From Eledone cirrhosa (taxonomy: Eukaryota): a stretch of 64,000 nt of DNA. Both the position numbers and the translations under genes were made by a program. Below the pieces are notes generated by a model, which was not told the origin of the DNA, ran no database searches, and saw only the letters and a program-made list of their open reading frames with translations. Each line of letters begins with the position of its first letter. The stretch's first letter is position 1. The stretch covers positions 376,340,001 through 376,404,000 of the forward strand of contig OZ024740.1 of assembly GCA_964016885.1 (NCBI GenBank), written 5' to 3'. Positions 1,521 to 44,495 of the stretch are shown here, in pieces.

Positions 1521-2125
1521 AAGTATATGTGCGTGGGGGGGGTGTCAATGTGTCTGTTGACACCTGGAATATAGCTTAAGAGAAATATGACAATAATGAT
1601 ATGATAGGCACCTAATATTTGAACTGGTTTATAGAATTCTTTTGGCCTTTTTGACTCTAAGTAGAGCTTTAAAGAATTAGCTTTTAAAGAATTTCCATTT
1701 TCTTTAAATCCATCAACCATGACCGACCCCCAACCATCTTATAGACACCTGAAATATAGACATTTTTAGCTTAAGAGAAACTTAAAAATAAGGAGTGGCA
1801 CCCCATTCTGAACTTGTTCATAGAATTCTTTCTGCCTTTCTCACTCTAAATATAAATTATAGCCTTAAAGAATTAGCTTTTAATGAATTTCCTTTCCTTT
1901 CAACCAATGACCTCCACCCATCCCACTCCTTACCCTCTCCTACCACCTGAAAAGATATAAATACCACAACATTTATTTTCGGAAAGCCAGATTCCTGATG
2001 ATTTCTAAAGAATGAAACAGTTCTAGTCCTGTAGTATCTCATCTATATTAAAACTGTTATACTCTGCTATGTATTGAGTACCTTACTTACTGTGGTTACC
2101 TCCGATTCACCCGGAATAACTTACC
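1521..2125 (+). mobile_element. PLE 3' UTR/pLTR with HHR and tail (family B)
   Basis: Flanked by (TA)n, with an internal ~190-bp duplication and an HHR at 1989-2039. Homologous to 2813-2932 and 44812-45350 (both minus). Confidence 0.75.
1989..2039 (+). ncRNA. Type I hammerhead ribozyme
   Basis: agattc CTGATGA tttctaaagaat GAAA cag..ctg TA gtatct; stems I, II and III can all form (one mismatch in stem I). Confidence 0.75.
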
Positions 2126-2143
2126 TATATATATATATATATA

Positions 2144-2527
2144 TTTGAAGAAAAAGAAGAAAAGAATGACTTCACTTGTAATGTTAAAAAATGTTTATGA
2201 TTTAATGTTATAATATAATTGTATCAACTTTTGGCACAAGGCCAGCAATTATTCCAGTGTATCACTGGTACATTATTTTATAGACCCCGTAAGGTTGAAA
2301 GGCGAAATTAACCTCGGCAGGATTTGAACTCAGACCATAAAGGGCCGTAACTATTTGCTGCAAAGCATGGCGTCCGACCTTCTACCGATACTGCCTATCC
2401 ACCTTAATATTATAATATTATATTATAACATAAAATAATAAACATTTGTTAACATTACAAATGAAGTCATTCTTTTCCTTTTTTCAAATTTACCTAACTC
2501 TATCATGGATCTCACACATTTTCCAAT
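2144..2527. mobile_element. Fold-back (inverted-arm) element in (TA)n, with a SINE at its centre
   Basis: 2144-2218 is the inverted complement of ~2415-2488. The right arm carries an extra ~38-nt tail. Confidence 0.65.
2218..2403 (-). mobile_element. tRNA-derived SINE (octopus-type)
   Basis: The minus strand has a B-box-like GAGTTCAAATCC and the core GCCTTTCA.CCTT.CGGGGTC.ATAAAATAA.GTACCAG. Other copies lie at 7814, 45021 and 52061. Confidence 0.8.
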
Positions 2528-2550
2528 ATATATATATATATATATATATA

Positions 2551-2742
2551 TAACGAAGGAAATGTGGTAAGGAACCAGGTGGACCATAACGCATCAAAGT
2601 ACTCAATACTTAGGGTAGTAGAGTGGGTAATAGGAACAAGTAAGACCCCGACGGCTGAGCTCAAGCCGTTTCGACGGCTAATTCAGTACATAATTAGCCG
2701 TCGAAACGGCTTGAGCTCAGCCGTTGGGGTCTTACTTGTTCC
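2551..2742. mobile_element. Short fold-back PLE derivative (family A)
   Basis: Inverted arms GGAACAAGTAAGACCCCGACGGC..AATT / AATT..GTTCC around an 8-nt spacer. The left arm has an ~80-nt tail; (TA)n on both sides. Confidence 0.85.
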
Positions 2743-2812
2743 TATATATATATATATATATATATATATATATGCAGTAATTAACACATTATTCCCTATT
2801 TATATATATATA

Positions 2813-2932
2813 TAAATAAGTCTATTGCCCGTGCAATCAGGAGTAACTATAGTTATTAAGGTACTCAATACATAGCAGAGTATACATATTTAAAAAAGAA
2901 ATGGCTTCTACAGGACTAGAACTGTTTCATTC
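2813..2932 (-). mobile_element. PLE family B tail plus 3' half of HHR
   Basis: Reverse complement of ~2012-2125. Confidence 0.7.
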
Positions 2933-3041
2933 CTATATCTACATGAACATACACATATATATATATATAATATATGTATATATATATATATATATAGTGA
3001 CGAAACTTAAGTCAATTGCATGAACACATAATCCTTTATTT

Positions 3042-3097
3042 ACTTCTATATATATTTCGATGATAGCCATTGAGTGGCTATGACCTCATCAGGCAGT
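3042..3097 (-). ncRNA. Type I hammerhead ribozyme in a short PLE end (2996-3165)
   Basis: actgc CTGATGA ggtcatagcca-ctcaa-tggctatcatc GAAA tatata TA gaagt. Confidence 0.8.
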
Positions 3098-3261
3098 TAG
3101 TCAGTTCTTAGATATGCCAGCTATGTGTGTATAGTGTTGATGGTATCAGAGCCATGGGACATATCATTTTTTATATATATTTATATATATTTTTATATAT
3201 ATTTATATATATATATTTATATATTTATATATATATATATTTATATATATATATATTTATA

Positions 3262-3391
3262 TAGCGAAGCAAAAGTGGTAAGGAACCAGGTGGACCATAA
3301 CGCACCAAAGTACTCAATACTTAGGGTACAGAATTAGCGTACAGAATTAGCCGTCGAAACGGCTTGAGCTCAGCCGTCGGGGTCTTACTTA
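3262..3391. mobile_element. Deleted fold-back derivative of family A
   Basis: Inverted tail followed by CAGAATTAGCCGTCGAAACGGCTTGAGCTCAGCCGTCGGGGTC. Confidence 0.75.
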
Positions 3392-41575: not shown

Positions 41576-41647
41576 ATATATATATATATATATATATATA
41601 TATATATATATATATATATATATATATATATATATATATATATATAT

Positions 41648-41975
41648 GAATAAATTTAGTCCTTCATCAGTGATCTTCCACCTTCATTTGTATTTCATCC
41701 CTTTAAAGACCATATACCTCTGGTTGGTGCGAGCAACGGCTAAAGAAAGTCGTTGGGACACGTAAATAGGGGGAACGAGCGAGAGAGTAAACAATCAAAG
41801 ATGGTAATGCAACGAAAAGTGAGGAAGAAGGAGTCAAGTCCCTGAAATCGATGAACATAAGGTCTGTGAAATCGTGGACGAGAGAGAATAAAGACCATCA
41901 CACCTGGTCGAAATGTGAGCAAGGAAATAATTTCGCACAGGTCACACAGGAGGAAGAAGGAGTCAAGTCCCTGAA
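41648..41975. repeat. TA-inserted repeat related to 42469-43209
   Basis: Shared GTCCTTCATCAGTGAT..TCCA.CCTTCATT.GTATTTCATC...GTTGGTGCGAGCA. Confidence 0.65.
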
Positions 41976-42030
41976 ATATATATATATATATATATATATA
42001 TATATATATATATATATATATATATATATA

Positions 42031-42217
42031 GGAAAAGAGTCATGGCGCCGACGGCTAAGCTCCGGCCTTTTCGACAGCTAGTTCTCGCTGTCGAAACGGC
42101 CGGAGCTCATCCGTCAGGAGACTCTTTTGCTATTACCCACTCTACTACCTTAAGTATCGAGAGAGTACTCTGTTGCGTTATGGTCGACCTGGTTACTTCC
42201 CACACTTTCTTTGTTAC
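42031..42217. mobile_element. Diverged fold-back derivative of family A
   Basis: GGAAAAGAGTC...TTTCGACAGC / GCTGTCGAAA...GACTCTTTT, with the tail on the right arm. Confidence 0.75.
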
Positions 42218-42468
42218 ATATATATATATATATAGGGATTGTAGCGTCCACATCAATACAGATCTAACATTGAGCTGATCAATTGTGAAACGCGCGTCAC
42301 AATTCAATAACCGTAATGAAAACCATATAATTCGTCCTTTTTATAATTTTCACTATATATATAATATAAAATATAGATATATACACACATATATACATAT
42401 ATATATATATATATATATATATATATATATATATATATATATATATATATATATATATATATATATAT

Positions 42469-43209
42469 AAAACATGAGAAGAATGAATACTGCGTGGTCG
42501 CACATGGGTTACATATGATAAAAATTGTCCTTCATCAGTGATTTTCCAACCTTCATTAGTATTTCATCGCTTTAAAAATCATATACCTCCAGTTGGTGCG
42601 AGCATTAGCTAAATAAAGCTACTGGGACAAGTAAATCGCGTAAAGCCAGCGAGACATGTAAACAAACATCAAAGGATAGCAACGCAAAGATAGGAAAAAA
42701 CAAGCACATGGGAGTCCGATCAGCTTAAGCTGTGTGGATTTCATGAGCGAGAGACAACAGACCGTGCGACGCGAGTGAGGTGTGAGCAAGAAAGGACCCC
42801 ACTTCAGGCCAAACGGGAGGAAGTGAGAATGGGAGAAGCAGAGAGTGAGTGAGTGTGAGTGCGAGGAAGAGGCCAGTCGAGAGAAAGTGTAACTGACAGA
42901 GGGGGCGAAAGAAGGTGAGAGAAACAGAGAGAAGGGGAAGACAGTAAGAGAAAATCAGACAAACGCATCTGGAGAAAATATATTTAAAAAACATGAGAAG
43001 AATGAATACTGCGTGGTTGCACATGGGTTACATATGATAAAAATAGTCCTTCATCACTGATTTTCCAACCTTCATTGGTATTTCATCGATTAAAAATCAT
43101 ATACCTCCAGTTGGTGCGAGCAATAGCTAAATAAAGCTATTGGGACAAGTAAATCGCGTAAAGCGAGCGAGACATGTAAACAAAGATCGAAGGATCGCAA
43201 CGCAAAGAT
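42469..43209 (-). mobile_element. Non-coding partial tandem (unit ~519 bp) with degenerate HHR-like core
   Basis: 42469-42690 is directly repeated at 42988-43209. The minus strand has gaaaatca CTGATGA agg. Confidence 0.6.
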
Positions 43210-43249
43210 ATATATATATATATATATATATATATATATATATATATAT

Positions 43250-43444
43250 CACAAATGAATTGTGATAAGTAACCAGATGGACCATAACGCACTAGAGTAC
43301 TCAATACTGAGGGTATTAGAGTGATAAATAGGAAAAAGTATGACCCCCGACGGCAGAGCTCAAGCCGTTTCTACGGCTATTTCTGGACTCCAGAAATAGC
43401 CGTCGAAACGGCTTGAGCTCTGCGGTCGGGGTCATACTTTTTCA
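43250..43444. mobile_element. Fold-back derivative of family A
   Basis: Arms meet at CTGGA-C-TCCAG; the left arm has the tail. Confidence 0.85.
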
Positions 43445-43463
43445 TATATATATATATATATAT

Positions 43464-44495
43464 AAAGAATTAGTATATCTATCAACATATATATACAGAT
43501 GCATACCTATGCTAGCAAATATATAGGTTTTGTCTTAGTAACTTTGTGATTTAATGCAAGGGGATGCAGAACAATTATATGAAAGACGTAAAATAAGAAA
43601 ATTATAAAAATTAACTTACTAAAATTTCACTCCAACTAATTAGTTTCTGAAAGGGAATAAACATGGTTTTCAAATGGAAAGCATGGAGAAGCCGTTTCGT
43701 CATCAGGAACTCTGTTCTCAGCTAAGTTACCAGGCGATGCGTGGACACAGGGAACTTATACAAAAATAATTCAGTGGATGGAAAAAAGAAAGCGTGGACT
43801 AAAATTCCAAGGCATTGAAAAAAAATCACTGCCTACTTGGTCGGTGGCAAATTCAAAAGAATCAATAACGTGACATCGAGGTTAATCAGTGAGAAGTGGG
43901 GTGTTAAAAAGTCAGTAGCCTTTAGTAAGTAAGTTAATTTTTTATAATTTTCTTATTTTACGTCTTTCATATAATTGTTCTGCACCCCCTTGCATTGAAC
44001 CACGAAGTTACTAAGACAAAACCTATATATTTGCTAGCATAGGTATACATCTGTATATATATGTTGGTAGATATAGTAATTCTTTATAATTATCTCCAAA
44101 TTATTTTGTTGAGGAAAAATTTGCCAAAACTGCTACTATAGTTCATAGTAATGGCTCGGCTACTGTATTTTTAACACCCCACTCCTCACTGATTAACCTC
44201 GATGTCACGTGATTGATTCTTTTGAATTTGCCACCGACCAAGTAGGCAGTGATTTTTTCAATGTTTTGGAATTTAGTCCACGCTTGCTTTTTTCCATCCA
44301 CTGAATTATTTTTGTATAAGTTTCCTGTGTCCACGTATCGCCTGGTAACTTAGCTAAGAACAGAGTTCCTGATGACGAAACGGCTTCTCCATGCTTTCCA
44401 TTTGGAAACCATGTTTAATCCCTTTCAGAAACTAATTAGTTGGAGTGAAATTTTAGTAAGTTAAGTTTTATAATTTTCTTATTTTACGTCTTTCA
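43464..44495. mobile_element. Non-coding PLE derivative (family H): inverted arm plus ~530-bp partial tandem
   Basis: 43464-43920 is the inverse of 44158-44495 plus the tail (43970-44088). 43921-43970 is directly repeated at 44452-44499. Confidence 0.8.

Follow-up and report, generated by a model that had tools for sequence, protein, structure and literature searches.

What fixes the two ends of an insertion made by a Penelope-like element (PLE) is a question raised by a 64,000-nt stretch of the Eledone cirrhosa genome (GCA_964016885.1, contig OZ024740.1, forward-strand positions 376,340,001 to 376,404,000; hereafter the window), which carries insertions of several PLE families. Such insertions have a tail on one side only and two arms placed head to head, features so far without a mechanism, and the RNA recognised by a PLE protein is known for one element only, at a resolution of about 150 nt. 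An earlier note, made from the letters of the window, described a bulged hairpin in six families and read it as a signal for initiation by the reverse transcriptase (RT). We find a covarying hairpin in RNA sense that lies at a fixed short distance 3' of the insertion junction and is, among the tails tested, restricted to those of Hydra type; it is present twice, and the two copies probably position the two ends of each insertion.

Hydra-clade elements and their bulged hairpin

The Hydra clade of PLEs is characterised by a C-terminal GIY-YIG endonuclease without CCHH, the motifs CxCx5C, RW[KR] and DKT, a hammerhead and (TA)n targeting (PMC8557442). By these sequence traits the elements studied here are Hydra-clade PLEs. 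Family E, present in the host genome as intact 6,672-bp tandem units, encodes within one open reading frame (ORF) of 813 aa an RT with an RWK-like motif (RWR at 37), DKT at 115 and YRDD at 346, followed by a CxCx5C linker and, at the C terminus, a GIY-YIG domain with CxLC and CxH and no cysteines between GIY and YIG, and so has every Hydra protein trait; Pfam gave no match for the Hydra ORF. The family A ORF has RWR at 37, DKT at 117 and YRDD at 348. Endonuclease remnants of families A, D and E all keep CxLC and have no CxxC between GIY and YIG, CxH being present in A and E, and CxCx5C in D and E (the A remnant does not include the linker part, nor the D remnant CxH), so that families A and D fit the Hydra clade as far as their remnants reach. 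The shared GIY-YIG type that had been proposed for the families with coding remnants thus stands for A, D and E; families B, C, H and F, with no ORF in hand, are provisionally assigned by motif and architecture only.

All of these elements insert into (TA)n. Hammerheads in the pseudo-long terminal repeats (pLTRs) of PLEs are already known (PMC4209133, in the part available to us), and here cores were found by pattern in families B, D and H and variant or long-stem forms by eye in A and E, the family C core being degenerate. The family A form begins with U instead of C and has a long stem II, and stem II of the family E form is about 120 nt long (Table 1); both were missed by Rfam. The bulged hairpin is not part of the type I hammerhead fold, since it is duplicated and sits at a variable distance, tens of nt, 3' of the core.

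In RNA sense the consensus of the hairpin is RCUC-stem-loop-stem-UH-GAGY-ACU, with a length of 16-25 nt. The eight stretches listed earlier for the window were recovered at the same positions and with the same letters, two letter-level corrections aside: the family A copy at 31721-31744 lies where it had been placed, with the loop ACTTCA and not ACCCTA, and the family B upper stem includes one G-T pair. All six families were confirmed, and a probable seventh, F, carries a variant of the motif. The bulge, held to be a constant UU, proved to be U followed by U, C or A (UU 30, UC 9, UA 6 in 45 non-redundant instances).

In the 64-kb window alone, a loose descriptor of the motif did not exceed chance (8 matches, against a mean of 2.3 and a maximum of 9 in shuffled sequence), and the motif was therefore tested in further sequence. 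Over 444 kb the same descriptor gave 30 matches, as compared with 7-18 in shuffles, and one strict hairpin pattern gave 14,045 matches in the 3.0-Gb host genome as compared with 42 for its control; 30 loci fetched from the strict-pattern matches contained several more families. For other hosts we used loci with a Hydra protein alignment, 78 from metagenomes and 17 from a genome collection, in which anchoring by sequence only (GCTC and GAGCRCT) yielded 70 instances, 45 of them non-redundant. The first pair above the 2-nt bulge is Watson-Crick in all 45 (34 C-G, 11 U-A), and when the bulge is set to 0, 1, 3 or 4 nt this number falls to 0, 0, 6 and 10, respectively. The second pair is Watson-Crick in 33 and G-U in 3, and none of 20,000 permutations reached the observed values. 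Although such counts can be inflated by kinship among the sequences, a quick tree of 21 ORFs requires five double changes of the hairpin-1 upper pair with no mismatched intermediate, at least two of which are forced by well-supported branches. The lower stem shows double changes less often (ACUC/GAGU in families A, B and E; GUUC/GAAC in H; GCAC/GUGC in loci L211 and L216), and the sister elements L151 and L192 carry UCUC/GAGA in both of their hairpins. The covariation proposed from a handful of window copies is thus borne out across many families and hosts. A long-range pairing between the two hairpins, seen in minimum-energy folds of family A and locus L153, was set aside because the local pairs covary where the two copies differ.

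Because the 5' arms of the 45 hairpins, being of variable length, could not be aligned by MAFFT, a covariance model was seeded from eight hairpins of equal length. Trained on non-host loci only, it gave 14 matches in the window, 11 of which, including the top 8, are PLE hairpins. In 380 kb of unselected host DNA, a (TA)n junction came 36-87 nt or less after 19 of 20 matches, whereas the background was 9%. The covariance models R1 and R2 miss family E, which has a long loop, and hairpin 1 of family H.

The motif was also found by eye in four of the six Hydra consensi in File S7 of PMC8557442, namely the coral Amil-2, the sea cucumber Ajap-1 (two copies) and Ajap-2, and the sea louse Crog (variants with purine bulges), with no clear copy by eye in Amil-1 and Obim-1. 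Outside the clade, none of the 17 passages with GAGCACT in the consensus files of Naiad and Chlamys showed a convincing hairpin by eye. In line with the absence claimed earlier for Naiad-like and Neptune-like tails, 12 of the 13 other window tails are without the motif under the loose descriptor, the thirteenth being that of the probable family F. Rfam returned no match in the window at gathering score and none at E up to 5 in five twin-hairpin loci, and no relatives were found in viral contigs. The motif is a clade-wide, apparently undescribed RNA element.

Two hairpins and two junctions per unit

The picture of one hairpin and one junction turned out to be incomplete, since most of the copies first listed sit in long arms that end at a second junction further downstream, and this junction is followed by a second copy of the hairpin (in the window, that of family H). 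In a full-length unit the order is hammerhead, first junction (J1), hairpin 1, second junction (J2), hairpin 2, ATG. All of 30 tail-selected family A loci share one end point, J2, which is 48 nt downstream of the hairpin, and their inverted arms end at J1, upstream of it. In the full family E unit a second copy of the long-loop hairpin starts 8 nt after the TA of J2; from this a hairpin 2 was predicted for family A, and then found 6 nt after the TA of J2. Its pattern has 376 matches in comparison with 0 for the control, and nearly all of the matches listed share the hairpin start. Families D and H also have a hairpin 2.

The same arrangement is seen in other hosts: upstream of 45 near-full ORF matches we found two hairpins in 23 cases, one in 12 and none in 10, the counts in the controls being 5 for 390 coding tiles, 0 for 45 reverse strands and 8 for 1,800 shuffles. 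With a stricter upper stem the numbers are 17, 16 and 12. Four of the ten hairpin-less cases are permuted contigs whose true ATG is in another place and is preceded by both 3' arms; among the others, L211 has two model matches, three look 5'-truncated and L139 has divergent copies. An ORF-less tandem repeat of about 611 nt (L252, L253, L276, L080) keeps three hairpins, its arrays ending 3 nt before the second, and looks like a non-autonomous Hydra derivative.

With a junction defined as the end of identity before the TA flank, each insertion end lies 3-8 nt 5' of one hairpin copy: short arms stop 3-7 nt before hairpin 1, and long arms include hairpin 1 and stop 3-6 nt before hairpin 2. Most loci were picked by junction-bearing queries, and the ratios of the two ends are thus not unbiased. 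Of 94 TA-flanked family A ends, 38 lie 5 nt before hairpin 1 and 50 lie 3 nt before hairpin 2 (J1 ends of this family number 18,151 in the host genome). Of the 24 family D ends, 2 stand 6-7 nt ahead of hairpin 1 and 19 stand 6 nt ahead of hairpin 2; the 7 family E ends divide into 4 at 4 nt and 3 at 6 nt. In family H the distances are 3, 9, 9 and 11 nt to hairpin 1, and 4 and 36 nt to hairpin 2. J2 of family D (near 6790 in the window) maps 6-7 nt before hairpin 2 in the read-through copies L292 and L302. While the start-to-start spacing of the two hairpins varies between families (78 nt in A, 101 in D, 116 in H, 139 in E), the distance from J2 to hairpin 2 is steady (3, 6, 4 and 6 nt, respectively), and hairpin 1 therefore does not set J2. 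Of the 18 ends that could be mapped in other hosts (TA masked, identity >=89%, length >=50 nt, contig ends dropped), 15 fall 1-8 nt before a hairpin, a zone that holds 14% of all positions and 30% of post-TA positions.

These measurements agree with the concentration of junctions shortly upstream of the motif that had been predicted. Counted from the start of the TA at which short arms stop, a distance put earlier at 6-8 nt, the hairpin follows after 8 nt in family A and after 7 nt in C, E and H; in B the short arm and the hairpin copies of the window belong to different subfamilies, and the TA aligns with a TG at -6.

Of 30 short family A inserts, three or four start exactly where the hammerhead is predicted to cleave, 26 nt upstream of hairpin 1 (for example C1:35428872, 40999515 and 51899381 in the host genome), which suggests that cleaved RNA is sometimes the template.

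Joining of the two ends and its possible mechanisms

Resolved inverted insertions of family A joined one end of each type in 50 of 50 rows (about 46 distinct, four rows repeating a locus), and the Hydra "tail" therefore corresponds to one hairpin period. Among 20 consecutive sites selected by J1, the partner was J2 in 16 and J1 in none, the other 4 being without a resolved partner, and of 28 classified loci selected by J2, 22 had a J1 partner and 6 had none within range. The first 100 J1 sites listed contained, by eye, no outward-facing J1+J1 pair within 5 kb. A further class, 18 hairpin-1 arms found by eye among the 30 distinct sites in the 100 matches listed, starts 0-7 nt before hairpin 1; to six of these an inverted J1 arm, some 8-15 nt long, is fused, so that the two are adjoining, non-overlapping pieces of one RNA.

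We take the motif to be a cis-acting RNA recognition element of Hydra-clade PLEs that is present twice, its structure given by covariation and its recognition by the element's own protein inferred. Probably the insertions arise by twin priming, in which the RT-endonuclease would bind both hairpins on one RNA and prime both target strands. An RT-endonuclease, probably a dimer, would bind the two bulged stems on one unprocessed tandem transcript and nick both strands of the (TA)n DNA; one cDNA would start just 5' of each hairpin, aided by short UA microhomology, and the two cDNAs would run upstream and be joined head to head to give the inverted arms, with hairpin 1, the tail, carried by the J2 arm only. 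Of the earlier reading as an RT-bound initiation element, the covarying hairpin and its fixed short distance 3' of the insertion junction stand, and binding by the RT is a probable part of it. A wider proposal, to which we give about an even chance, is that of a programmed double-priming module: two hairpins would dock two RT active sites on one transcript, extending both (TA)n strands at once, a short twin-hairpin cassette would suffice for mobilising any upstream RNA, and the hairpins would set family specificity, as is suggested by the L151 and L192 lineage having altered the same base pair in both copies.

The ends would be placed in the same way if the hairpins guided a nuclease and not the RT, that is, if the CCHH-less GIY-YIG domain or a host enzyme cut the RNA or the sense single-stranded DNA (ssDNA) a few bases 5' of each hairpin and so created 3' ends at J1 and J2. 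An identical fixed 5' offset is expected from such cutting, and there are precedents: in the available parts of the sources, Ssn GIY-YIG nucleases recognise a hairpin in ssDNA by its sequence and structure and cleave a few nucleotides upstream of it (PMC11893778), RNA-seq read ends coincide with the start sites of the Poseidon element PAc (Frangieh et al. 2024, PMC11167929, cited here and below for the part available), and the D. virilis tail is needed for endonuclease recognition; Craig et al. also ascribed the tail to endonuclease-mediated resolution (PMC8557442). We nevertheless consider this explanation, the strongest of the alternatives, unlikely, because RNA cut at J1 cannot template the J2 arms of family A, which read 50-65 nt through J1, and two separately cut RNAs would leave the 50 J1+J2 rows unexplained; moreover, PAc initiates internally on a longer RNA, and its endonuclease mutants left RNA cleavage unchanged (PMC11167929).

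Self-priming at junction palindromes has been proposed (PMC3846280, in the part available), and only J2 might be a first-strand start, with the inverted arm made by fold-back or self-priming and J1 marking a second-strand stop at hairpin 1. Most family A arms do meet in the palindromic stem II of the hammerhead, and in 29 of 50 rows the two arms are of equal reach within 8 nt. However, the J1 arm extends 27-91 nt beyond its J2 partner in five rows (L324, L084, L337, L015, L339) and is longer by about 1.6 kb at 31803-33446 in the window, and in L015 and L339 the J2 arm stops before J1. J1 arms can thus cover sequence that is absent from the J2 arm and are therefore not fold-backs of it, and one motif with one offset defines both ends, all of which makes the fold-back route very unlikely.

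A slightly lower probability still is given to another role of the hairpin in the RNA, such as capture of the mRNA in cis by the protein it encodes, control of translation from the nearby ATG or regulation of the hammerhead, with the junctions lying nearby through pairing of single-stranded, UA-rich linkers with (TA)n. Hairpin 2 ends only 5-42 nt before the first ATG, the 12 nt preceding the hairpins are AU-rich (45 instances from other hosts), and hammerhead cleavage in PAc is assisted by protein (PMC11167929). Yet the other-host ends fall near a hairpin far beyond the 30% of TA positions found there, family D skips the other TAs over a 75-nt stretch, and the 611-nt repeats have no ORF and nevertheless keep three hairpins and end 3 nt before one. 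A double-stranded DNA element (a promoter or dyad binding site) or a splice signal is hardly tenable, even though PLE pLTRs hold promoters and introns (in the part of the literature available), since the hairpin arms are 8-19 nt apart in most hosts and 73 and 108 nt apart in family E, the 2-nt insert is found on one side only, the upper pairs are free to covary and no GT or AG is invariant at a fixed place.

Several observations weigh against binding of two structured hairpins as the cause of the two ends. As to the structure, the lower stem is nearly invariant, so that the covariation is mostly that of the upper stem; the model-fitted alignment leans toward structure (94.5% paired cells as compared with 79.3% when shuffled); the evidence for the RNA strand is weak (G-U 8 versus A-C 2); and the lower-stem pairing probability is below 0.4 in 7 of 14 folded copies, a thermodynamic weakness that might be as expected for a site stabilised by protein. 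As to the duplication, L150 has an intact start and no hairpin, hairpin 2 was not found for family C or for the I group (in the latter, no true match in a pattern search), and a search with the family B hairpin 2 pattern gave 36 matches with a single B-like candidate (L286). As to the ends, those of family H at 9, 9, 11 and 36 nt and the remaining three of 18 in other hosts (18, 20 and 47 nt) are exceptions, and the J1+J2 pairing was tested strictly in family A only, mostly at junction-selected loci. Lastly, PAc belongs to another clade, starts inside an AC-rich stem-loop without target homology, and has start sites that did not differ between strands (PMC11167929).

Relation to known systems and other features of the window

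PLE RTs are sisters of the telomerase RT, TERT, and the hairpin had been likened to the telomerase template-boundary element. Both are RNA structures at a fixed distance from an RT landmark, but the boundary element lies 5' of the template and ends synthesis, and the analogy fits poorly, since the hairpin sits on the 3' side of the start and copying in the J2 arms runs through hairpin 1. Long interspersed elements (LINEs) such as R2 and the eel UnaL2 carry a protein-bound stem-loop at the 3' end, 3' of the start, that recruits the RT, and it is these that the position of the hairpin resembles. In twin priming by L1, an inversion results when the opposite target strand supplies a second primer, and the second site is one of chance microhomology; here, both sites appear to be fixed by duplicated RNA structures, and the arms usually overlap in sequence.

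A close precedent is PAc, in which both strands are cut and extended by a protein modelled as a dimer, initiation is likewise internal at two sites that bracket the tail, uncleaved RNA is used, and RNA 3' of the start sites is required (PMC11167929). The start found here lies just outside a stem and has UA microhomology, and no conserved or duplicated recognition motif is described for PAc in the part of that paper available. Craig et al. 2021 likewise reported inverted arms with a one-sided tail, a hammerhead and (TA)n targeting for the Hydra clade, with a tail of 30-40 bp as a product of endonuclease resolution as opposed to the 70-140 nt of one hairpin period found here; the words "hairpin" and "stem-loop" are absent from the main text (PMC8557442). 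Ssn nucleases share the pairing of a GIY-YIG protein with a hairpin defined by sequence and structure and an event a few bases upstream, and differ in being bacterial stand-alone ssDNA nucleases with another motif and no RT (PMC11893778, in the part available). A full-text literature search did not find the motif, its duplication or its link to both ends (subscription papers were outside its scope, and an earlier mention is possible), nor was the motif found in the available part of a 2026 retrozyme preprint. The Hydra clade, the pLTR hammerheads, the one-sided tail and two-site internal initiation are thus already known, and the motif, its duplication and the link to both ends are apparently new; the earlier statement that no description was known holds for the motif, while initiation at two internal sites bracketing the tail had been published (PMC11167929).

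The motif is kept in several animal phyla and predicts both insertion ends to within a few bases, and is thus directly testable. It can serve as an annotation marker for Hydra elements and non-autonomous repeats, gives structural studies of a telomerase-related RT a minimal template, and is a possible cis module for RNA-templated insertion.

Table 1. Hairpins, hammerhead-like motifs and coding remnants in the window (positions from its first letter)
Feature	Position	Strand	Remarks
Family A hairpin 1, long arm	2601..2624	-	J2 near 2552; inverted short arm J1 near 2743
Family A hairpin 1	31721..31744	-	J2 near 31672; partner J1 arm ~31803-33446 including endonuclease remnant
Family A hairpin 1, one stem-base mismatch	13628..13651	+	J2 near 13699
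Family A-type hairpin 1 with flanks	43295..43328	-	Top covariance-model match; J2 near 43249, J1 arm end near 43444
Family A-type hairpin 1, decayed, with flanks	41498..41530	+	J2 near 41574; covariance-model match
Family A-type hairpin 1, UC bulge	42139..42162	+	J1 arm end near 42031
Family A hammerhead-like motif, variant core, long stem II	33346..33429	+	By eye
Family A Hydra-type GIY-YIG remnant	31779..32225	+	Sequence motifs
Family B hairpin 1	2061..2079	+	Hammerhead core 1995-2017; arm end at TA run 2126
Family B hairpin 1, second copy	2863..2881	-	Letters and covariance model
Family B short arm, hammerhead core to J1	44807..44874	-	
Family D hairpin 1	6862..6883	-	Hammerhead core 6950-6974; J2 near 6790
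Family D Hydra-type GIY-YIG remnant, CxCx5C linker	8867..9481	-	
Family C hairpin	13383..13416	-	Short arms end ~13527 (+), 5388 (+)
Family E hairpin 1, long apical part	21589..21669	-	J2 near 21540; J1 arm end near 31248
Family E hammerhead-like motif, ~120-nt stem II	31044..31177	+	Inverted copy 21747-21880; by eye
Family E inverted coding remnants, thumb and Hydra-type GIY-YIG	25527..27355	.	
Family H hairpin 1, GUUC/GAAC lower stem	43977..44000	+	J1 arm end near 44496
Family H hairpin 2	44093..44114	+	Minus-arm J2 end ~43465, mapping to 4 nt before this hairpin
Family H hairpin 1, decayed copy	43549..43572	-	Hammerhead-like core 43668-43706
Probable family F hairpin variant, 2-bp upper stem, UC bulge	34925..34963	-	Second copy 1184-1223

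The loop of hammerhead stem II, 55-65 nt upstream of J1, is where most family A arms stop (L001-L030, L322-L341), and the resulting mini inverted inserts are many, about 200 nt long, and varied in their junction letters. At L104/L105 two identical tails face each other across (TA)17 as a perfect palindrome, either a rearrangement or an assembly artefact. The tail of family B has given rise to an 83-nt tandem repeat with one hairpin per unit (L282-L283).

Of each 6.7-kb unit of family E, some 4 kb is untranslated and rich in simple repeats (21674-30952 in the window; L061-L062), and its ORF has a low-complexity insert between the RT and the endonuclease. The 150 best protein matches that were scored are all 100% identical, and the family has thus expanded recently; its full-length frames are many. 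Hydra PLE sequence also occurs in 17 contigs of prokaryote assemblies (L209-L225), most likely as contamination from animal hosts.

PLE remnants in the window that are not of Hydra type (11667-12476, 15489-21480 and 46340-50941) keep the cysteines between GIY and YIG, and their tails are without the motif. On the minus strand, ORF fragments at 55257-56912 read like a PIF1-type helicase, presumably that of a Helitron.

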